A stretch of 61,693 bases of DNA, counting the filler. It is 5 parts of 5 records of this genome, joined end to end, with 100 filler letters (N's around TTAATTAATTAA, not from the genome) between each part and the next. Parts side by side here need not be neighbours in the genome. Positions count along the whole stretch, not along the records: positions 23,626 to 32,089 come from SRR31147125_9280; 4 more parts are not named here. The stretch is one strand, 5' to 3'. Shown one piece after another: positions 23,526-40,395 of this stretch (its first letter is position 1; each line of letters opens with the position of its first letter). A model generated the notes under the pieces. That model made no database searches, was not told the DNA's origin, and saw only the letters and a list, made by a program, of their open reading frames with translations. A program made the translations under genes and the position numbers.

Positions 23526-23625
23526 NNNNNNNNNNNNNNNNNNNNNNNNNNNNNNNNNNNNNNNNNNNNTTAATTAATTAANNNNNNNNNNNNNNNNNNN
23601 NNNNNNNNNNNNNNNNNNNNNNNNN
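23526..23625. other. Artificial contig spacer
   Basis: N-run with TTAATTAATTAA. Confidence 0.99.
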
Positions 23626-24815
23626 ATCCGGAAAACCCCGATTGGGAAAATTATACCCCATCACATACAGGTTATATCGAGGATTGGGAAGCGCACCAGG
23701 AGGCCATTGAACAAGAAGTGGATACGATTTTTGACAGATTTAAAGACGAGTCGACAAAACTGATACTGCAACAAAACCACGATAAACTGCTTGCCCTGGC
23801 AACCGGAGTTTTCTTTGCCTGCGAAGATGCAGAAATTGACGACCCTTATGGCGATTATGAAGATATGAATGAAACGCTTTTGGAAACATTCCACGCCGCC
23901 CTTGCAGATGTAAACGAAAAAATAGAACAGTCGGTAATCCCGGGAAACATTAATGCCGCCATCGAATTATTTTTATCGTTTTGCAACCAAAGGCATCCTG
24001 CAGAGCCTAACTTCTTGCTACAACTTGAACCACTGCTAATTACTTTATCTGAAAAATCGACACAACCGGCTCAATTGCTTGAAACTATCGATGCCTCAAA
24101 AGTTAACAGGGCTCATGTACCACAGTTGGTTCTCTTACTGAATAAAAACAGTGGAAACCGTACAGAATGGCTCAAAAGTGCAGAAAACTACTATAAAACC
24201 AACATTAAAATTGCCAAACAACTAATTGACTACTATTTTGAAAATGACCAGGATAAATACCTGCAACGCGCCCACGAACTTTTTGAAACTGACAATACAT
24301 TTTGGGCCGGGTATCTGCAAAATTCAATCAGTTACGAACTCGATAAGCAACTTTACATCGATGTATTTTACGAACTCTGCACATACCAACACGATATCAG
24401 CTATTATCAAAAAATCAATAGCCTCCTACCCCCTGCTCAAAAAGAGAAGCTACTGGCAGAAATGAGCTGGAATGCACGTTTTACGGTTGAAATACTTACT
24501 ACTGAAAAACGGTACGGAGAAATAAAAGAGGTGGTAAACAAAAATATGAATTCGTGGGATTTTGTGCACCTTCTATCGCCCATCATCGGAATTTACCCCG
24601 AATTCTGTTTTAACGCAATAAAGCAGCAGGTAACCAACACCTTAAAAACAGAACGCGGACGAAGTGTTTACGAGCGAATTGTGGAGAAAATGCAGTTGGC
24701 AAAAAACATCCCCGGATTCGCCAGCCAAACCAACGAACTAATAATGCAGCTATATAACCACAAACCCAACCTGCCGGCGCTAAAAGATGAATTTAAAATT
24801 GGAGGCTTGGTATGA
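23626..24815 (+). CDS. Helical hypothetical protein (C-terminal part; resembles SWIM-finger-associated proteins)
   Basis: Long ORF that probably starts beyond the contig edge; ends R..Y......HKPNLPALKDEF. Confidence 0.55.
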
Positions 24816-24906
24816 GAAATGAAAAACGTACGTGTATTAGAATGTATAACTTGAAAGCCGACAGAGCCTGCTGGAACAGGAAATAAAAATTGATAAAACA
24901 ATATAT

Positions 24907-25040
24907 ATGAACAAAACAGACATTTCAATTTTAAAAGAACCTTTAAAGGTTACGGGGAAAGTGGTATTGGAAATTGAACCGTTGGCGCCTTTGTCAATGG
25001 TGAGTGATTTACCTGCTCTTTTTATAAATCATTAAAAAAT
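24907..25040 (+). pseudogene. cas5: Truncated, diverged cas5 5' fragment
   Basis: MNKTDISILKEPLKVTGKVVLEIEPLAPLSMVSDLP, then after a 1-nt shift SFYKSLK. It aligns with the intact Cas5 N-terminus MEKIDISILEKIPELTKRITIQIEPMAPLSMVSNLPGSFYKSLK. Confidence 0.85.
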
Positions 25041-25057
25041 TACATATAACTTATTTC

Positions 25058-25076
25058 AGTCAAATATAATTTGACT
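25058..25076. promoter_or_regulatory. Palindromic operator candidate upstream of the HTH gene
   Basis: AGTCAAAT-ATA-ATTTGACT, perfect 8-bp arms. Confidence 0.5.
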
Positions 25077-25114
25077 TTACGAACAGATTACTTTTTTATG
25101 TAGTCTAAAAATAA

Positions 25115-25122
25115 TAATTTTG
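25115..25122 (+). promoter_or_regulatory. Bacteroidota -7 promoter box for the HTH gene/cas operon
   Basis: TAATTTTG matches TAnnTTTG and ends 24 nt before ATG 25147. Confidence 0.6.
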
Positions 25123-25125
25123 TAT

Positions 25126-25150
25126 ATGTTATAAATAATAAGCTACATGG
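25126..25150 (-). promoter_or_regulatory. Predicted self-target (protospacer 25147-25126 plus 5' CCA PAM at 25150-25148)
   Basis: Minus strand reads CCA-TGTAGCTTATTATTTATAACAT, against spacer TGTAGATTATTTTTTAATAACAT. Confidence 0.7.
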
Positions 25151-25338
25151 CATGTAAATTGAAAACAATAGAAAAATATTACGAAATTCTTATAATATTA
25201 CGTTCTAAAAAGGTATCTGTTCGTGAGTTGATGAAAAAGATGTCAATGTCAAAAGAAGGGGTTTATACTTACCTGAGAACTATGCAGAAGTATGAACCTG
25301 GCCTACGAAATGAGAATAATAAATATTTTTTGCAATAA
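25147..25338 (+). CDS. Small basic winged-HTH protein (63 aa) at the head of the cas locus
   Basis: EILIILRSKKVSVRELMKKMSMSKEGVYTYLRTM fits an HTH_11-like pattern; preceded by a -7 box. Confidence 0.7.
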   Translation: MACKLKTIEKYYEILIILRSKKVSVRELMKKMSMSKEGVYTYLRTMQKYEPGLRNENNKYFLQ

Positions 25339-25414
25339 AAAAAGAGTCAATGTTATTAAAAAATAATCTACAATTTCAATTCCGAAAGGTGCGATTGAAT
25401 ATAACATTGACTCT
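25337..25414 (-). ncRNA. Predicted ~78-nt crRNA-like regulatory RNA (leader-repeat-spacer-U tract)
   Basis: Minus-strand TATCTTCG -7-like box at 25426-25419; 14-bp perfect inverted repeat (25401-25414 / 25343-25356); one repeat; ends in a U7 run. Confidence 0.65.
25373..25401 (-). CRISPR. Solitary CRISPR repeat (no array)
   Basis: Minus strand TATTCAATCGCACCTTTCGGAATTGAAAT, 29-30 nt, ending in the type I 8-nt handle ATTGAAAT; 80 nt upstream of cas6. I found no second copy. Confidence 0.8.
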
Positions 25415-25481
25415 ACCGCGAAGATAAGAATAAATAAACTTGAGAAAGAAATTATACAATTCACTAAAATAAATTTGGCTA

Positions 25482-26147
25482 ATGAGAATACATTTAAAAA
25501 TCGATTCTGATGGCACAGTTGTTCCATTTAACCACCAGAGGAAATTAACAGGAACCATTCACAAATGGATTGGATTAGAAAACATTGAACATGGAGAGAT
25601 TTCACTCTATTCATTTTCGATGTTAACAGGTGGAAAAAAGGATACATATGGAAAAGGGTTAAAATTTAACAATGGCTCATCTTTTTTTATTAGCGCCCAC
25701 AATCCAGCTCTAATTAAAACGATAATTGCGTCAGTACAATCAGATCAGGAAATGTTTGATGGCTTACGAGTAGTGGAAATTATAATACAAGAAGATCCAG
25801 ATCTGAGCCAAACAGATCGTTTTTTGGTTGCAAGTCCCATTTTTATAAAGCGCAAAGAAGGGGAAAGGGTTAAACATTATGCCTTTAACGATAATGGTGT
25901 TGCCGACTATTTAAAAGAAACACTTCTAACAAAAATGGAAAAAGTGGGATTACAAGACGATTCACTAACCATTGAATTCGATAAGGCATACCATAATGCA
26001 AAATGTAAAGTTATGCATTACAACGGTGTGAAAAACAAAGCCAATATATGCCCTGTGATTATCAAAGGAAAACCAGAAACAAAAGTGTTTGCCTGGAACG
26101 TAGGAATTGGTAACAGTACAGGAATTGGATTAGGTGCAATAAAATAA
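25482..26147 (+). CDS. cas6: CRISPR endoribonuclease Cas6
   Basis: H...SLYSFS, SPIFIK, C-terminal G-rich loop GIGNSTGIGLG. Confidence 0.93.
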   Translation: MRIHLKIDSDGTVVPFNHQRKLTGTIHKWIGLENIEHGEISLYSFSMLTGGKKDTYGKGLKFNNGSSFFISAHNPALIKTIIASVQSDQEMFDGLRVVEIIIQEDPDLSQTDRFLVASPIFIKRKEGERVKHYAFNDNGVADYLKETLLTKMEKVGLQDDSLTIEFDKAYHNAKCKVMHYNGVKNKANICPVIIKGKPETKVFAWNVGIGNSTGIGLGAIK

Positions 26148-26153
26148 ATAGTT

Positions 26154-26867
26154 ATGGAGAAAATAGATATCTCAATTCTTGAAAAAATACCTGAATTAAC
26201 AAAAAGGATAACAATTCAGATTGAGCCAATGGCGCCATTGTCGATGGTAAGTAATTTGCCTGGTTCATTTTATAAATCGTTGAAAAGCCCAAGTAAAAAG
26301 ATGTTATGTGGTTTATTTGAAAATATGTTGGGATGGCATTTTAGTTTTAATCATAGAACAGCAATCCAGAAAGAGATAATAAAGGCTCGACGTAAGCAAA
26401 AAGTAGAGTTTTCCAAACCACAAAAAGGCTCAACATATATCCCCCTTTTGATGGAGTATTTCGAAATTGATTTGGTAACAGTTCCAGAATACTTTATGTA
26501 TAATGATTTGTGGAGTAAAGCATATCGAAGAGCTGATGCAGATGTACATCCTAAAGGGACTCAAAATATTCACTATGATTTGATTTCGATTAAAAGAAAT
26601 AAACCACGAAATCCCCAAAAGCCCAAGCAAATTGCAAGTGCAGAATTATTAAAAATGTTTCTTGACGACCAAGGTAAGTTTCCTCTTTATTACTCTACTC
26701 CAACAATGCGAGAATACATAAAACATAATAAGCCAATTGAAATAGTATTAAAAATTGACAATAGCTTACTTTGTATGATTACCAAATACCTACAAACTCA
26801 AAATACAAGCTATTTGGGAAATAGTGAAGGATGGATAGACATTAAAATAAAAAGCAATGGAAATTAG
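26154..26867 (+). CDS. cas5: Cas5, PGING subtype (Cas5p)
   Basis: IEPMAPLSMVS..PGSFYKS...P...LCGLFENMLGWH; YYSTPT.RE; YLGNSEGW. Confidence 0.85.
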   Translation: MEKIDISILEKIPELTKRITIQIEPMAPLSMVSNLPGSFYKSLKSPSKKMLCGLFENMLGWHFSFNHRTAIQKEIIKARRKQKVEFSKPQKGSTYIPLLMEYFEIDLVTVPEYFMYNDLWSKAYRRADADVHPKGTQNIHYDLISIKRNKPRNPQKPKQIASAELLKMFLDDQGKFPLYYSTPTMREYIKHNKPIEIVLKIDNSLLCMITKYLQTQNTSYLGNSEGWIDIKIKSNGN

Positions 26868-28389
26868 ACTACACCCATATATTTGTTTTGGCCAAGCATT
26901 AGTAATAGTTGAGAATGGTGGTGATAAAAAGATGGAGATTACAACCAAAAATATTGCTGATGAGATTGTAATTGGACTTGCCTCTTTTAGGGTTCAACCA
27001 TGTGAATTATTTGAAGGCAAAGAAAAAATAAAATATCGATTTGGTCGAATTGAGAAAGGAAAAACAGAGGTTGGAATTTTCTTAGCCCCTAATATTATTT
27101 CAACTGATATGCTTGCAAAAAACACTTGGAAAGGAGCTTTACAGTTATATGAAAAATGTCAAGATAATCCACCCGAGAAAACAGAAAATGCAACAATGGC
27201 CTTGTCTCCCCTTTCGGGAGAATATTTATCATTTTCAACAAAGGGAGGAATTGGAAGGGGAAAACCCAAAAGCACAATTCTAGAAATGGCTCTCAGTATG
27301 GTCACCACTTTAACACCAAATAAACCATGCCTTCAAGATCGTGGAAATAACACATGCATAATACCGGATCTACCTCTTGATAAAATGATGGATTTCATTC
27401 GATTATTTAAAGATATGCTTCGTCATCAAACAGCTAATGATATTTATTATGGAAGAGTAAAAAAAGAGGAAAAAGGAAAAGGAGCAAATAAAAAAATAGA
27501 ATACAAACCTGTCAGACCGTTATTGTTTCAAGGGAATTTCCCAAATCCACCCAAAAGTACTACACTTGGAGCTGTGGCTTTGTTGGCAACAATTGGGGAA
27601 TTTTGTAAAAAAGAGGAATATTCACGACGAGCACAGGCAGTTATTGAAAGTCTAAAAGGAACAACCATTTACATGGTAAAGTATGGAGATGCAAAAACAT
27701 TTACGTTTAATCATTTTGTTATTGACCTTGCAAAAAATGGTAATCTACGGCGAGTAATCGACAGCCTATATTATTCTAAATTATACAACCAATCGCATCG
27801 CGATTATAAAAATACAGAATATCAGAAATTCGACCTATTCACCAGTCGCTTTCTTCAGCTATTTAATCGTGCTGCATTTAAAGATTTTCTTGCCTTCAGG
27901 GCAGAATATCCACAAGAAGTAAAATTATTATTTATAACATATTTCGAAAAAATGGAGAAAATAGATCCAAACATCGTAACCTCTGCCAGACATTTAGGTA
28001 GATGGCTTAACTTAGTTGCTTACCATACTGCAAAAAGGGAAATAAAAGATGGTACTCAAAATTATTGGGACAAACTAAGAGAACAAAAAGCAAAAGTTCT
28101 TGTAGAGCTGGAAAGTTCAAGTTTTTCAGCAAAATCGGGTGATGCAATGATCGCCCAAGTTGTTACCAGAGCAGGAAGACTTTCAGGAATGGATGCACCA
28201 AGTGAAGCAACTTTGTTTATGGAAAAAACTTCAAGTGGTGAACTCCCCCTTGACCAAGCAAGAAATTTAGTAATCGCATTTTCAAGACTGAAAAATGTGA
28301 AAGAAGAAAAAGTAGATGAAAGGACAACAGAAAGCTCAGTCGAAGAAAAAGCTCAGGAAATGGAAACCAATAATTATCAAGATTCATAA
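26857..28389 (+). CDS. cas8: Cas8 large subunit, PGING subtype (Csp2-like)
   Basis: 510 aa between cas5 and cas7; TTLTP.KP, IPDL, RP....GNFPN.P, FL..F....FKDFLAFRAEYP. Confidence 0.75.
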   Translation: MEIRLHPYICFGQALVIVENGGDKKMEITTKNIADEIVIGLASFRVQPCELFEGKEKIKYRFGRIEKGKTEVGIFLAPNIISTDMLAKNTWKGALQLYEKCQDNPPEKTENATMALSPLSGEYLSFSTKGGIGRGKPKSTILEMALSMVTTLTPNKPCLQDRGNNTCIIPDLPLDKMMDFIRLFKDMLRHQTANDIYYGRVKKEEKGKGANKKIEYKPVRPLLFQGNFPNPPKSTTLGAVALLATIGEFCKKEEYSRRAQAVIESLKGTTIYMVKYGDAKTFTFNHFVIDLAKNGNLRRVIDSLYYSKLYNQSHRDYKNTEYQKFDLFTSRFLQLFNRAAFKDFLAFRAEYPQEVKLLFITYFEKMEKIDPNIVTSARHLGRWLNLVAYHTAKREIKDGTQNYWDKLREQKAKVLVELESSSFSAKSGDAMIAQVVTRAGRLSGMDAPSEATLFMEKTSSGELPLDQARNLVIAFSRLKNVKEEKVDERTTESSVEEKAQEMETNNYQDS

Positions 28390-28407
28390 ATATAAAAACA
28401 TACAACC

Positions 28408-29325
28408 ATGAATATTAAAGGAATATTAGTTACAGCATTAGCTCCGTTCGAAAATCATATTGCAAATGGAGGAGAAAAATTACTAGGAAATGCATCATCA
28501 ATCAAAAGAAGACCCGACGGAAAAGTTTATGTTTCTGGCCAGATGCAACGACACGTCCTGTTTTCAGCAATCGATCGTTTAAACGAAATCGATGAGGACA
28601 AAGGAAACACTTTCGTTTCGAATGGCGATGGCATTAGTCCTTTTATTGAAAAAGACCTTCGTGCCGACATGGGCGGTTTTATGCATCCTAGCAAAGGAGA
28701 TTATTCAGGAAGAAGAACAGCTCCACTTTCTGTTACTCCAGCAGTTGCAACCGGTTTGAGTCAAGTTGGAAGAGATTTGTTAGTTAGGATAAAACTTGAT
28801 ACTAACGAAGACTCGAAAGATCAAGCTTTAGCAACCAAAGAGTTCAGCGAAACAGACATCATGCACATGAACTTCTTTTTAGATGTAAGTGCATTAAGTA
28901 TCTCAAAAGCATTTGAATATGAAGATGGCTTCAATATTGGCACCAAGTATTTCAAACATGCCAATAATCCTGAACGCAAACGCAGAGCCAAGTTATTCCT
29001 AAACGGTACTCGATATATGAATGACTATGCAAGTCAAGCTCGAAATGCGGTTAGTGGCGAACCCCAAAAAGTGTTAATCGTTTTTGATGAAGTAATGAGC
29101 CGAAAAGCTAGCCGTTATTTTGTGGCTGAAGAACAGGAACAAAATAATATTTTGGCAGAATTAGATGCCAAAGGTGCAAAGTATTTTATTGGAGATGACC
29201 AAACAGATAAGAGTGTACAGAAAGCATATGATGAAGCTTTAGCCTTTTTGGAAGCAAATGAATTGTATGACCCATCAAATGGTGACGATATAAAATCTTT
29301 TGCCGAAGCATTTGGTAATGAATAA
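28408..29325 (+). CDS. cas7: Cas7 backbone subunit, PGING subtype (Csp1-like)
   Basis: ANGGEKLLGNASSIK, YVSGQMQRH, DLRADMGGFM, RRTAPLSVT. Confidence 0.85.
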   Translation: MNIKGILVTALAPFENHIANGGEKLLGNASSIKRRPDGKVYVSGQMQRHVLFSAIDRLNEIDEDKGNTFVSNGDGISPFIEKDLRADMGGFMHPSKGDYSGRRTAPLSVTPAVATGLSQVGRDLLVRIKLDTNEDSKDQALATKEFSETDIMHMNFFLDVSALSISKAFEYEDGFNIGTKYFKHANNPERKRRAKLFLNGTRYMNDYASQARNAVSGEPQKVLIVFDEVMSRKASRYFVAEEQEQNNILAELDAKGAKYFIGDDQTDKSVQKAYDEALAFLEANELYDPSNGDDIKSFAEAFGNE

Positions 29326-31589
29326 AATTCAGAATAAAATATTGGCCAAGCCTTCTGGTATTTCGTTGGAAAAACACCATTCCAATGTAATGTCAGAAGG
29401 TGCTTATATTGAAGATTCCTTTCCTGTTGAATTTGAAAAATACCATAACTTTGTTGGAAAATCGTTGGCTAATCGACTGCAAATAGTTTGTAAGCATCAC
29501 GATGATGGAAAAAAGTCAACATCAAATGGCAAGAAGCTTGTCAAAGGGATTATCAAGCATATTTAGAGTGGAAAGAAATTCATCAAGGGACTTTTGTAGA
29601 ATACTCTAAACAGCAAAAAGAAGAAGCTGGTAAGAATATTCGGGTAGCAGCAACAAGACACGAATTATATTCAATTAAACAATTCGATATAGATAAAGCT
29701 CCTTCATATATTCTTACCGCAATAGCTGCACATCATGGAAAATTATCAGTAAAAGATGCTGAACGCTGGATTAAAGAGGGAGCAAAAAATTATTGGGACT
29801 TCTTCAACCAGCTCGACTATGATGTCAAGGATAATTTTTCATTTAAAGATGCCTTGTTAAAACAATATGAGCAAGCTGGCCCGCGTGGACTATTGCAGCT
29901 TGCTGATCACAGGGCAAGTGCTAAAGAAGATGGACAATCAGTTCCAGAAATAAAATCTTTTCGCTACCAATTTCCTCATCCATCAAAACGAGGAGTTCAA
30001 AAGATAATTGAAGAAAATTGGAACAACGACCTTCTTTTGGTTCGAGCTCCAACAGGTGCAGGTAAAACAGATGCTTCATTGCTATGGGCATCGTTACAAA
30101 TTGAAAACAAAAAAGCAGAACGATTAATAATTGCAATGCCAACACGTTTTACATCCAATGCGTTGGAGATAAACGTTGCTGAAACATTATCTGAAACGGG
30201 ACTTTATCATTCAAGTGCCTGGTTTAACAAATTCCAAACAAAAGTAAAAAGCAAAGAAGTGGAACATGCAGTTGCAAAGAAAAACCATGAATTTGCCCGT
30301 CTTTTATATACTCCAATAACTGTTTGTACTATTGATCATTTATTGATGTCGCTAACACTGATGCGAGAAGATCATCACCAAATAACATTTAACCTTGCAA
30401 ATTCATGCTTAGTAATCGATGAAGCCGACTTCTACGATGAATTTACACAAGCAAATATACAAACACTTTTAGTTGCATTAAAAGAATGGAACGTTCCTGT
30501 ACTTTTAATGAGTGCGTCTTTACCAGAATCAGTTGTTCCTTCTTATCAAGCATTAGGATATAATGTAGATCAAATATTAGAAGAAAAGTCGGATAACGAT
30601 AGAATTCGATTTAATATTGAATCAATAAATGAATACGAAGACTTAGTAGAAATAGAACCGCTTTTAGAAAAATGTATCGAAAAAGGAGCTGCAATTATCT
30701 ATGCCAATACGGTTGATAAGGCCATGTCGCTCTATGATTATTTCTGCGATAGAGATGTAAAAGCAATTGTTTATCATAGCCGATTCACGGAACCCGATAA
30801 AAAAGCGAAAGAAGATGAACTGATTGATTGCCTAGGGAAAAAAGCGTGGGAAAATAAAACGGCAAATGGAATTGCAATACTTACTCAGATTGGGGAAATG
30901 AGTATTAACATTAGTGCAGATCTAATGGTTTCTGAGATTTGTCCAATTGACCGATTGACACAACGTGCAGGCAGGTTATGTCGTTTTGAAATCAATGGCG
31001 AACGAAATGTTGGTGAATTGCATGTTATCATTCCGAAAAAAATGGAACTCTTTATCCAGCACCATACGGAACTTTTGATTTACATGAAAAGGCATGGCAA
31101 CCAATTAAACCATTAACGGACACGATTGAAAGAATAGAATTGAAAGACTATAGTGCCAATATGTTGGTGACGTTATTGAATGAAATCTATTCGCATGAAT
31201 CGGAATTTTCAGCAGTAGCTAAACGGAATGCAAATCAGCTAAAAGAATTGTTCATCTCCAATTGGCTAATAAATCCACTTTATAAAGTATCGGAAGAAGA
31301 TAACGATGGAAATAATTGGAGAAGTAGAAATATTCCGCCTCAGGATACCGTTTTTGTATCGTTGCCTGATAATAGATACTTCAATAATTATTTTGACTTC
31401 CAAGAATGGAAGCTATCTAATTCACTTGAAGTCCCTGTTTATTTGATAGAAAAATACATAAAAAAACACATTCTCGATTTTGAATCAATCTTTTTAAAAG
31501 ATGAAGAAGAAAAAATAATGGTTATCCGAGAAGGGTATTACAATTTTGAAAAAGGAGTATTTTTACCCGATGAGAGCAACTTCTTATAA
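29318..31589 (+). CDS. cas3: Cas3 HD nuclease-helicase (read in three pieces; indels at A-runs 29509-29514 and 31036-31042)
   Basis: HD part: LAKPSG.SLEKH, HHDDGK, RHE, AHHGK, LADHRAS. Helicase part: APTGAGKT, DEAD, MSAS, HSRF, QRAGRLCR. Adding one A to each run restores a single ORF. Confidence 0.92.
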
Positions 31590-31631
31590 TCTTCGTTCGA
31601 TCGCTAATGCCAACTTGTAAAAATTAAATTC

Positions 31632-31660
31632 ATCTCAGGGTTCCAAACCCTGTCAGAGGT
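31632..31660. repeat. REP-like palindrome (degenerate copy)
   Basis: ATCTCAGGGTTCCAAACCCTGTCAGAGGT, related to 32057-32089. Confidence 0.65.
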
Positions 31661-31685
31661 AAAAAACATACAACACCAAAACAAC

Positions 31686-32038
31686 ATGCCAACATTTGAG
31701 CACGACATATTTTACGACATCCACAAAATACCAATGAAGAAAAAGTGGAGCTCTTACGAGAAGCTAAAAACTTATCGTACCAGTTTTATATCGATAAACT
31801 TAATGCGAGTGAAAGTTTTGCACGTCAACCGGCAAATATCAGTTTTGATGATGTTTTGGAGCGTATAGATGAATCTACCCATTTTGTATTTATCCACCGC
31901 AAGGGGTATTCAAAACGGGAGCATCGCTTAGAAATTGGTTTCAGCACAATGGAAACCATCGACCACTTTTTGTTTATTTATGTTGATGAACTTAAAAAGC
32001 CATATTTTTTGGAGAAATATAATCTGGAAATAATGTAA
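31686..32038 (+). CDS. Hypothetical protein (~117 aa, split at an A-run near 31740)
   Basis: MPTFEHDIFYDIHKIPMKKK continues in another frame as VELLREAK...HFVFIHRKG...EIGFST..DHFLFIYV. Confidence 0.55.
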
Positions 32039-32056
32039 AACCTATTAAATAGCACC

Positions 32057-32089
32057 ACCTCTGACAGAGTTTGGAACTCTGTCAGAGGT
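32057..32089. repeat. REP-like palindrome at the contig end
   Basis: ACCTCTGACAGAGTT-TGG-AACTCTGTCAGAGGT, perfect 15-bp arms. Confidence 0.75.
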
Positions 32090-32189
32090 NNNNNNNNNNN
32101 NNNNNNNNNNNNNNNNNNNNNNNNNNNNNNNNNTTAATTAATTAANNNNNNNNNNNNNNNNNNNNNNNNNNNNNNNNNNNNNNNNNNNN
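32090..32189. other. Artificial contig spacer
   Basis: N-run with TTAATTAATTAA. Confidence 0.99.
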
Positions 32190-33193
32190 TGGCAATCTTA
32201 CGGACAAATAGTCCTGTTATGAAGGAGGTTTTTAATAAAGTAAGATCTGTTAGTCAGTCAAATAGCACTGTATTGTTAACCGGTGAAACAGGTACAGGAA
32301 AAGGTGTTATTGCTAATCTCATTCACCAACATAGTCAAAGGAGAGAGAATCAATTTATTAATATCCATTGTGGGGCGATTCCTGAAACACTTTTAGAGAG
32401 TGAACTGTTTGGCCATGAAAAAGGTGCCTTTACTGGTGCCGTACGGAGAAAACTGGGGAAATTTGAAATCGCTCAAGCAGGGACCATTTTTTTGGATGAG
32501 ATTGGTACAATAACTCATTCAATTCAGGTAAAATTATTGCAAGTACTACAAGAAAAGATATTTCAACGAGTTGGCGGAGAAGTGTCGATTGAAGCCGATG
32601 TCAGGATCATCGCCGCAACAAATGCCGATCTGAAGGATATGGTCAAAAATGGCACATTTCGTTCAGATCTTTATTATCGCTTAAATGTCTTTCCCATAGA
32701 AATACCGCCTTTGCGGGAACGAATTGCAGACATACCTTTACTTGTCGAGCAATTTATTAAAAAATTGAATCGATTTAACTCTAAAGATATTCGCGGAATA
32801 GACTCAGAAGTTTTACAGGCTTTACAAAATTATACCTGGCCAGGTAATATTCGCGAATTAGAAAATATCGTTGAAAGGGCCTATATTCTGGAAACATCAT
32901 CCATTCTGAGTCGAAATAGTTTTCCTCATGAATTATTTGATAATATGAATGAAGCGCATTTTCATCGTATTGATACCTCTTTGACTTTAGAGAAGGTACG
33001 TAATCAGGAGGTTGCACTCGTCGAGAAAAAATATTTACAAAAGCTACTCACGATTTATAAGGGCAAAATAAATGAAACGGCAAAAGCAGCTGGAGTTGGG
33101 GTTCGCCAGTTACACAAATTAATGAAAAAACATGGTATTCATAAGGAAGAATTCAAACAGTTTGGAAGTAAGAATGTAAAATCGGAACAATAA
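32190..33193 (+). CDS. Sigma54-dependent transcriptional activator (5' partial)
   Basis: [47 protein letters not shown]-terminal Fis-type HTH. Confidence 0.95.
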
Positions 33194-39876: not shown

Positions 39877-39976
39877 NNNNNNNNNNNNNNNNNNNNNNNN
39901 NNNNNNNNNNNNNNNNNNNNTTAATTAATTAANNNNNNNNNNNNNNNNNNNNNNNNNNNNNNNNNNNNNNNNNNNN
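39877..39976. other. Artificial contig spacer
   Basis: N-run with TTAATTAATTAA. Confidence 0.99.
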
Positions 39977-40395
39977 TTTAGCTGAACTAACTACCTAATC
40001 ATTTTGCCTTTTATAATGACATTAACAATTTGTCTTTAATAACACCTGATTTTGCGAAAGTGGAGATTGTGCGTGTTGATGGAGATATGAGCGCCGGCAC
40101 TCGTATAGAATTACTTGTAAAAAAGCCGATTAAAAGCAAATGGGTGGTCCTTATTCAGGACCACCAACAGAACCGATATTTTATTGATATACAGGAAGAG
40201 GGACTATTCGCGTTTTGGCGACACCGGCATGAATTTAAACGCTGCCAGGAGGGTACGCGACTCGTAGACATGACAGAATACCAACTTCCATTATACCCTT
40301 TAAGCTGGCCTGTTCAAAACTGGATAGTAGAAAAACAATTAAAGAAAATGTTTTTTTACCGGCATAGCAAAACGCAACAACTCCTTGAAAAATAG
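39977..40395 (+). CDS. SRPBCC-family protein (5' partial)
   Basis: NL..ITP, F.D.Q..G.F.FW.H.H.F, MF.YRH. Confidence 0.75.

Follow-up and report, generated by a model that had tools for sequence, protein, structure and literature searches.

In the stretch of DNA analysed here (61,693 nucleotides (nt), hereafter the window), a 63-amino-acid (aa) open reading frame (ORF), P0001, which encodes a stand-alone winged-helix-turn-helix (winged-HTH)-like protein, stands before the cas6 gene of a type I-PGING CRISPR-Cas operon. Between the two genes lies a single CRISPR repeat unit on the opposite strand, and the bases adjoining it match the 5' end of the small gene. With moderate confidence, we read this arrangement as a circuit in which Cascade, directed to the 5' end of the HTH gene by an antisense repeat-derived RNA, would repress both that gene and the cas operon reached from it by read-through, and in which the HTH protein would be a DNA-binding regulator. 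Direct computation underlies the presence and conservation of the ORF, the strand on which the repeat reads, its match, the pattern at the protospacer-adjacent motif (PAM) and the recurrence of the design in relatives. A first-pass annotation had proposed the small gene as the output controlled by Cascade; in silico, this finds support in a unique CCA-flanked match at the 5' end of the ORF and in five loci built alike, and the interpretation placed on it is partly supported.

The solitary repeat unit and its match at the HTH gene

The repeats of 50 arrays in related loci, read on the cas strand, take the form ...AATCGCACC-(3-7 nt)-GGAATTGAAA(C/T), with a reference consensus of 30 nt, and we scanned for repeats with this two-core pattern. 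The window copy (psi-R) measures 28-29 nt and is perfect in both cores, and in BLAST comparisons with the arrays of L023, L029, L031, L034, L042 and L058 it aligned in reverse orientation throughout. Because the repeat lies on the minus strand, a guide RNA made from it would be antisense to the HTH-cas6 unit.

A pseudo-spacer (psi-S) adjoins the repeat on its 3' side, and the first 16 nt of this pseudo-spacer recur in a predicted Cascade target (protospacer) that ends on the A of the ATG of the ORF (coordinates in Table 2). The target abuts a CCA at the PAM position, which on the plus strand is TGG, composed of the TG of the ATG and the next G. In type I R-loops the base at each sixth position flips out, and the pseudo-spacer and the target are equal at 14/14 non-sixth positions over the 16 nt, with mismatches at positions 6 and 12 only. 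In dinucleotide-preserving shuffles, a score of 14/14 was reached in 0 of 300 (contig) and in 0 of 3000 and 0 of 1000 (local regions). Within the 61.7 kb of the window the target is the sole non-self site with a score of at least 12/14, and it is also the sole CCN-flanked site with a seed match of at least 9/10. It begins 10 nt past TAATTTTG, a match to TAnnTTTG, the Bacteroidetes -7 promoter motif; this motif shows no enrichment across the window (62 copies vs 80 expected) and is weak evidence alone.

The repeat and the 16 nt of pseudo-spacer (44 nt together) are enclosed exactly by the arms of a perfect 14-nt inverted repeat. The folded RNA of the plus strand has an energy of -25.3 kcal/mol (z -5.7), and the hairpin is stable on both strands. 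As the first-pass annotation had noted, the hairpin downstream of the ORF has no U-tract on the plus strand, which reads ACCGCGAAG past it, and a plus-strand scan returned 0 terminator-like sites. The run of 6 T that follows the hairpin on the minus strand had gone unmentioned there, and together the hairpin and this run look like a terminator for a minus-strand RNA. A scan of positions 24600-25800 against Rfam gave 0 matches at E <= 1.

On a plus-strand reading of the repeat, the 14-nt match is simply the opposite arm of the inverted repeat and carries TTA in the PAM position. We rejected this reading because the related arrays all read the other way and because the analogous pairs in relatives use CCN.

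Related I-PGING loci, the PAM and the predicted circuit

In five related I-PGING loci (L043, L059, L060, L062 and L063), from Saprospiraceae and Spirosoma hosts, an inverted repeat unit is found upstream of the Cascade genes, and its adjacent bases match a CCN-flanked site on the same strand (Table 1). The repeat and the target are both on the minus strand, as in the window, and the pseudo-spacers of the five loci are unrelated in sequence. In all five the target lies between the repeat and cas5p. It is placed 17-33 nt before a TAnnTTTG box preceding cas5p in L043, L062 and L063, and 14 nt before the ATG of cas5p in L060; the repeat unit is within the cas6-cas5p spacer in L059, L062 and L063. 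The repeat of L037 is at a contig end, where no target was found. A triad scan over all loci returned other matches of at least 13/14, most of which were palindromes or repeats resembling repetitive extragenic palindromic (REP) elements, had no repeat core and were discarded.

Table 1. Repeat-target pairs in five related I-PGING loci; the last column gives the number of 1000 shuffles that reached the match score
Locus	Positions of the pair	PAM	Match	Shuffles
L060	631-660/702-720	CCA	14/14 non-sixth (16/16 contiguous)	0
L059	7398-7405/7499-7517	CCT	13/14 non-sixth	1
L062	7245-7274/7452-7470	CCG	13/14 non-sixth	2
L043	5144-5173/6197-6215	CCA	12/14 non-sixth (first 14 bases contiguous)	100
L063	7041-7070/7126-7144	CCA	12/14 non-sixth	70

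CC dinucleotides occur in these regions at a frequency of about 0.03, so their presence in 6/6 pairs is far from chance, and the six consistent pairs imply that CCN would be the PAM of the I-PGING subtype. Outside evidence for CCN is thin. The available passages of two papers give an NGG PAM for one array of P. gingivalis W83, which they do not specify; NGG is CCN on the other strand. Two papers on P. gingivalis spacers describe, in the passages available, no detectable PAM.

Repression of this kind has been described as CreR autorepression: the main passages of the CreR preprint (bioRxiv 2023.03.10.532045) report that Cascade represses its own genes through 15-nt partial matches, with demonstrations in I-B, I-E and V-A and mention of creA-like elements for I-B, I-C, I-D, I-E, I-F and I-U. 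We predict the five loci to be further CreR-type autoregulators in I-PGING.

For the window itself, we infer expression and processing of the RNA, binding of Cascade, repression, co-transcription with cas6 and a DNA target for the protein. The HTH gene would be the first cistron of a unit that runs into cas6-cas5p-csp2-csp1-cas3. Cas6 would make its cut in the minus-strand RNA after the repeat, and the product would be taken up by Cascade. This guide RNA would begin, at its 5' end, 8 nt within the repeat (handle ATTGAAAT) and run to a 3' end at the T-run near 25337. The first 16 spacer bases would pair with the 5' end of the HTH gene, downstream of the -7-like box and beside the CCA PAM. Such a partial match would lead to Cascade binding without Cas3 cleavage, and transcription of the HTH gene would be blocked; read-through into the cas operon would probably be blocked too, because there is no terminator on the plus strand. 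Where Cascade is scarce, diluted by real CRISPR RNAs (crRNAs) or inhibited, the HTH and cas genes would be derepressed, following the CreR/CreA logic, and the HTH protein would act as a transcription factor that forms a second layer.

Several observations weigh against this circuit. The window holds one repeat core only, with no clear second (distal) repeat, and that the solitary repeat is the cognate one is judged from relatives, the array of the organism itself not being on the contig. In its geometry the window departs from the five relatives: the HTH ORF separates the pseudo-spacer from the target on its far side, and the target is downstream and not upstream of the -7 box. No TAnnTTTG motif that could serve the minus-strand guide RNA occurs between 25415 and 25560, and an TAAATTTG box 5 nt before cas6 could be a separate cas6 promoter. 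Among the relatives, the matches of L043 and L063 are weak by score alone, as the shuffle counts in Table 1 show, and the spacers of the L031, L049, L078 and L029 arrays gave one match in all against the phage collection, a protospacer that has CCT at the PAM place but four mismatches at the seed end. As for the protein, its HTH assignment falls under the Pfam cut-off and the Foldseek fold search is not significant (values below). Its family is absent from 80 related I-PGING loci gathered with Cas7 (tblastn, E <= 0.01) and is not a general component of I-PGING systems. Finally, positions 25042-25324 are uncovered by the Logan contigs, an independent assembly of the probable source run, which leaves the assembly of the HTH stretch without a second witness, and the Logan contigs diverge from the window, as loose ends, at 24896, 24956 and 25366. 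These loose ends around the HTH cassette point to strain variants or to an assembly branch induced by a repeat.

The 63-aa protein and competing explanations

P0001 is strongly basic, with an isoelectric point of 9.79 and 14 K+R against 6 D+E, and it carries no catalytic or membrane feature. Its stop codon is 143 bp from the start of cas6, which has the same orientation. No second domain can be present because of this short distance: the chain stops at residue 63 without WYL or WCX, and the 143 bp are filled by the repeat unit. The picture given in the first-pass annotation, of a small, very basic HTH ORF without a sensor domain and co-oriented with cas6, therefore stands, with the HTH assignment itself below threshold.

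Pfam HTH_11 (PF08279) matches residues 13-48 with E 2.7e-4 and 21.2 bits, under the curated cut-off of 25 bits. PADLOC gave weak matches to two models, a cas-associated WYL model (E 6e-3 for P0001 and 1e-3 for its homologue P0002) and a CARF-HTH model, the latter in its HTH part. The AlphaFold model, built from a four-sequence alignment, is all-helical (helices 2-19, 25-32, 36-49 and 52-62), with a mean predicted local distance difference test score (pLDDT) of 74.7 and a poorly defined C-terminus; its last block, at the place where the beta-wing is expected, is of low confidence (pLDDT 63, then 47). The best Foldseek matches are the winged-HTH regulators IclR, NiaR/TM1602 and BirA, at E of about 2. 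The library support for an HTH is thus sub-threshold yet coherent.

Using hhalign, we aligned the four-member P0001 family with the N-domains of eight WYL regulators of related loci, and obtained a probability of 85% and E 5.8e-6 over 54 columns (family residues 9-62 vs WYL regulator residues 8-63; identity 15%). Of the 59 related loci whose sequence reaches 1.5 kb or more past the first cas gene on the upstream side, nine (L010, L014, L033, L042, L045, L053, L058, L065 and L080) have a WYL/HTH_11/WCX-type regulator gene of about 250-340 aa directly upstream of the first cas gene and co-oriented with it, which is the position and orientation of P0001 before its own operon. By profile similarity and position, P0001 is a putative stand-alone counterpart of the N-terminal winged-HTH DNA-binding domain of WYL-type regulators. 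The first-pass annotation had allowed that homologues might be only decayed N-termini of WYL regulators unlinked to cas loci; P0001 is indeed related to WYL N-termini, but the WYL regulators are cas-linked. In two loci (L010 5625-6904 and L083 377-1671) the WYL-type gene is followed by a protein of about 120 aa that appears HIRAN-like by eye, and in L010 this pair is directly before cas6.

Relatives of P0001 itself are very few. We searched about 15 billion proteins, covering 5.8 billion cluster representatives through a word index and 1.84 billion representatives in a complete HMMER run, and found only three: P0002 (63 aa, 71% identity), P0003 (60 aa, 70%) and P0004 (63 aa, 48%). All four members align end to end, with a shared start and end and 24 invariant columns. 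Full-length conservation in three other sequences also answers the concern, raised in the first-pass annotation, that the ORF might not be conserved. No longer protein matched P0001 at E <= 0.1 in the word search, and two further HMMER matches are long proteins built of repeated HTH modules. Since length and termini are constant down to 48% identity, these comparisons argue for P0001 as a real, very rare and maintained small protein, as opposed to a chance ORF or a one-off truncation. No member of the family turned up in 839 genomes from the order and families to which the closest relatives belong. Judged by sequence resemblance and not by Pfam, the best matches there (E 4e-6 to 3e-4) are mostly the N-termini of proteins of about 300 aa whose N-terminal sequence is WYL-regulator-like, the remainder being one IclR-type regulator, a 102-aa HTH protein, a 384-aa protein and a 92-aa HTH ORF. 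Searches for a locus encoding P0002-P0004 found none (P0001 against genome contigs, the family alignment against metagenome and viral contigs, and P0004 against metagenome contigs).

It is most likely that the HTH protein acts as a transcription factor and not as a toxin, because it corresponds to the WYL DNA-binding domain, found at the same slot in nine of the 59 loci, and has no toxin resemblance. The first-pass annotation had offered both roles; we favour the transcription factor, while the toxin has the precedent of CreP. A more specific proposal, tentative and on the unlikely side, is that P0001 is a relay gated by Cascade: a bare DNA-binding domain whose sole input would be the occupancy of its promoter by Cascade with the crRNA-like RNA. 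The protein would be made once Cascade is inhibited by anti-CRISPRs or titrated, and its outputs might be cell arrest, as a toxin derived from the DNA-binding domain of a regulator, or the switching on or off of other promoters, such as those that WYL-type regulators of defence islands normally hold.

We consider it unlikely that P0001 is a protein toxin in the manner of CreP, that is, a bare DNA-binding domain harmful in quantity that is silenced by Cascade with the crRNA-like RNA; that loss or inhibition of Cascade would free such a toxin, as addiction or as anti-anti-CRISPR, is just as unlikely. The published precedent is, in the available parts of the CrePA preprint, the CreP protein of an Acinetobacter I-F system, a Cascade-repressed toxin of 103 aa with a single KilAC domain, which was cut from longer phage DNA-binding-associated proteins and is repressed by CreA through a 19-nt partial match. 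The placement of the predicted Cascade target at the 5' end of the ORF, the compact convergent pair formed by the repeat unit and the HTH gene, which is reminiscent of a toxin-antitoxin module, and the very basic character of the protein would all suit a toxin. A language-model search, to be taken as a lead only, also placed P0001 nearest to HTH_11 clusters of 62-66 aa, the majority of them viral, and to one cluster from Bacteroidota. Against this, P0001 resembles neither KilAC nor any other toxin family in Pfam, NCBIfam, PHROGs (only matches at E 0.03-0.08) and PADLOC, its closest relatives are the DNA-binding domains of regulators, and tblastn against phage and plasmid collections returned no match; nor do its absence from the 80 related loci and its lack of a catalytic or membrane feature favour a toxin.

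Distinctly unlikely is a third explanation, that P0001 is a (nearly) functionless remnant of a WYL-type gene cut to its first domain, with the crRNA-like RNA serving the cas promoter only. The WYL regulators at this slot in other loci, the extreme rarity of the family and the position of the cassette at a recombination scar (see below) would agree with a remnant. In L053 (6564-7471), moreover, a frameshift or an error of assembly divides a WYL regulator into a 57-aa HTH ORF (E 1.2e-10 against the N-domain profile) and a 246-aa remainder, and this case illustrates a possible route by which HTH-only ORFs can arise. However, a one-off truncation would not leave three homologues exactly alike in termini and length at identities as low as 48%, and P0001 is not a recent truncation of a WYL gene, because the 143 bp before cas6 cannot fit a WYL remnant and its similarity to the WYL N-domains, at only 15% identity, is distant.

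The matching segments could instead be protein operators or promoter elements that arose by duplication, to which the HTH protein itself may bind; we think this very improbable. The similarity between 25125-25147 and 25349-25372 (16-23 nt) runs six bases further after a 1-nt offset, as in a duplication, and AGTCAAW half-sites are clustered around the HTH gene, with four copies in 25058-25412 (window-wide they are not enriched, with 25 found vs 25.9 expected) and AGTCAAT in both arms of the hairpin 25343-25414. Duplicated operators would not explain, however, that one copy directly follows the final base of a perfect repeat and CCA adjoins the second, that the mismatches fall exactly at positions 6 and 12, or that five other loci with unrelated pseudo-spacers follow the same repeat-match-CCN rule. 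Finally, a chance ORF in AT-rich intergenic DNA would be in keeping with its shortness, its 33% G+C and the lack of its exact sequence in the protein collection, but is scarcely credible given full-length homologues at E 5.6e-18, 7.4e-16 and 2.9e-13.

Genomic context and comparison with known systems

The whole stretch consists of draft contigs joined by linkers of N and TTAATTAATTAA (23526-23626, 32090-32190 and 39877-39977), and genes across a linker are therefore not genomic neighbours. The HTH ORF is carried by a contig of 8463 bp (window 23627-32089), on which NCBIfam identifies the cas genes as type I-PGING (Table 2) and on which cas4, cas1, cas2 and a CRISPR array were not found. The Logan contigs have one additional A at each of 29508, 31035 and 31739, and the frame breaks of cas3 coincide with such one-base differences in A-runs. 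Because of these extra bases, the cas3 frameshifts most likely reflect errors in homopolymer runs of the deposited assembly and not decay; the frameshift in a small ORF pair at 31686-32038 likely has the same origin. GC-rich hairpin repeats of the CAGGGTTCCAAACCCTGTCAGAGGT type flank the end of the cas contig, at 31636-31660 and 32057-32081. Similar CTGACAGG repeats adjoin cas6 or cas5p in L006 (6835-7455) and L007 (6537-6736), and a 206-aa ORF near cas6/cas5p in these two loci is like a Y1 (REP-associated) transposase by eye, while Pfam found no family for it.

Table 2. Features of the contig that carries the HTH gene, in window coordinates
Feature	Coordinates	Strand	Remarks
395-aa protein, open at contig start	23628..24815		no Pfam, NCBIfam or PADLOC family
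42-aa N-terminal fragment of a second, diverged cas5p	24907..25035	+	TIGR03488 positions 2-36, E 5.7e-6
Perfect palindrome AGTCAAAT-ATA-ATTTGACT	25057..25075		~40 nt upstream of the -7-like box of the HTH gene
TAATTTTG, match to TAnnTTTG	25115..25122	+	consensus match only; 25 nt before ATG
Predicted Cascade target (protospacer) TGTAGCTTATTATTTA	25132..25147	-	
63-aa stand-alone winged-HTH-like ORF (P0001)	25147..25338	+	ATG to TAA; predicted first cistron before cas6
PAM-position CCA	25148..25150	-	abuts target
Left arm of 14-nt perfect inverted repeat	25343..25356		on the minus strand, pseudo-spacer positions 17-30, then the run of 6 T
Pseudo-spacer (psi-S), first 16 nt TGTAGATTATTTTTTA	25357..25372	-	
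Single CRISPR repeat unit (psi-R) ATTCAATCGCACCTTTCGGAATTGAAAT	25373..25400	-	
Right arm of inverted repeat	25401..25414		100% complementary to left arm
cas6	25482..26147	+	TIGR01877 E 2e-22; Pfam Cas_Cas6_C
cas5p (type I-PGING)	26154..26867	+	TIGR03488 E 3.4e-80
cas8c/csp2	26857..28389	+	TIGR03487 E 3.3e-190
cas7/csp1	28408..29325	+	TIGR03489 E 3.7e-164
cas3, split over several frames	29300..31589	+	NCBIfam

Upstream of the HTH gene, the cassette starts just past the fragment of a second cas5p. This fragment is 84% identical at the nucleotide level to the resident cas5p (26230-26278) over 49 nt, with a 1-nt gap, and it also matches the cas5p 5' ends of many relatives. The 395-aa protein encoded before it, a recurrent and unexplained cargo gene, has homologues in or beside the I-PGING loci L020, L036 and L022 (23-35% identity), and in L020 the homologue is followed directly by cas5p. 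Given the cas5p scar and the gene order of L020, the HTH-repeat-cas6 segment, perhaps with the whole operon, was probably acquired by recombination within cas5p, which fits the picture of such regions as a 'hotspot of gene shuffling' in the passages available from Shmakov et al. (bioRxiv 2023.03.03.530964). The palindrome upstream of the -7-like box is a speculative candidate operator. An 18-nt inverted repeat with 89% complementarity pairs 25079-25096, upstream of the HTH promoter, with 25207-25224, in codons 21-26 of the ORF.

Similar to CreR/CreA and to the mini-arrays and single repeat units of Shmakov et al., as far as the available text of these preprints describes them, the window has a repeat-derived element in a cas locus beside cas6. 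As in CreR/CreA, a PAM-proximal partial match of the pseudo-spacer to a promoter-proximal site, flanked by the presumed PAM, predicts binding without cleavage and hence autorepression. The accessible passages of Shmakov et al. report repeat-like units enriched around cas6 in I-B and transcriptional regulators among the cargo genes of I-D, and the window element, without a second repeat, would belong to their 'single repeat unit' class. It differs from CreR/CreA in that the repeat and the 16-nt seed are enclosed in a perfect 14-bp hairpin followed by a T-run, in that the guide gene is antisense inside the regulated unit, downstream of the target and between the target gene and cas6, and in that the target covers the 5' untranslated region and start codon of a small HTH gene instead of lying upstream of a cas gene. 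The main-text passages of the CreR and Shmakov preprints do not name I-PGING; their supplements may list I-PGING or Bacteroidota cases.

The resemblance to CrePA, within what the available part of that preprint describes, lies in a small single-domain protein gene in a cas locus whose promoter region is matched by a crRNA-like RNA, and, as with CreP, in a protein that resembles one domain excised from longer DNA-associated proteins. CreP is a KilAC protein of shown toxicity, whereas P0001 is winged-HTH-like without KilAC similarity. P0001 aligns with the N-terminal winged-HTH of the cas-associated WYL regulators (HTH_11-WYL-WCX), with the same position and orientation, but at low identity and without WYL and WCX, and so without a ligand-sensing or dimerisation module. 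Like the Aca repressors, P0001 is a small HTH protein tied to CRISPR biology; unlike them, it has no acr-like neighbour, no mobile-element context and no homologue in the phage and plasmid collections. The circuit is thus of a kind already known, and what it would repress first is a bare winged-HTH-like protein from a new and very small family.

That crRNA-like RNAs repress their own promoters or attached toxins is a recent discovery, shown mainly for I-B, I-E, I-F and V-A. The locus described here would extend the principle of crRNA-like autorepression to Bacteroidota I-PGING, with six independent predicted guide-target pairs and a consistent CCN PAM. It offers a compact and testable case where repression would act first on a dedicated DNA-binding protein, not on a cas gene or an RNA toxin. 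If P0001 is a mere passenger of the operon, the locus would still stand as a clean new case of CreR-type autorepression. If P0001 is a relay or a toxin, this would show how the domain of a regulator comes to be used as an output for sensing CRISPR status, and, in the case of a relay, the status of the CRISPR system would be coupled to a wider response.

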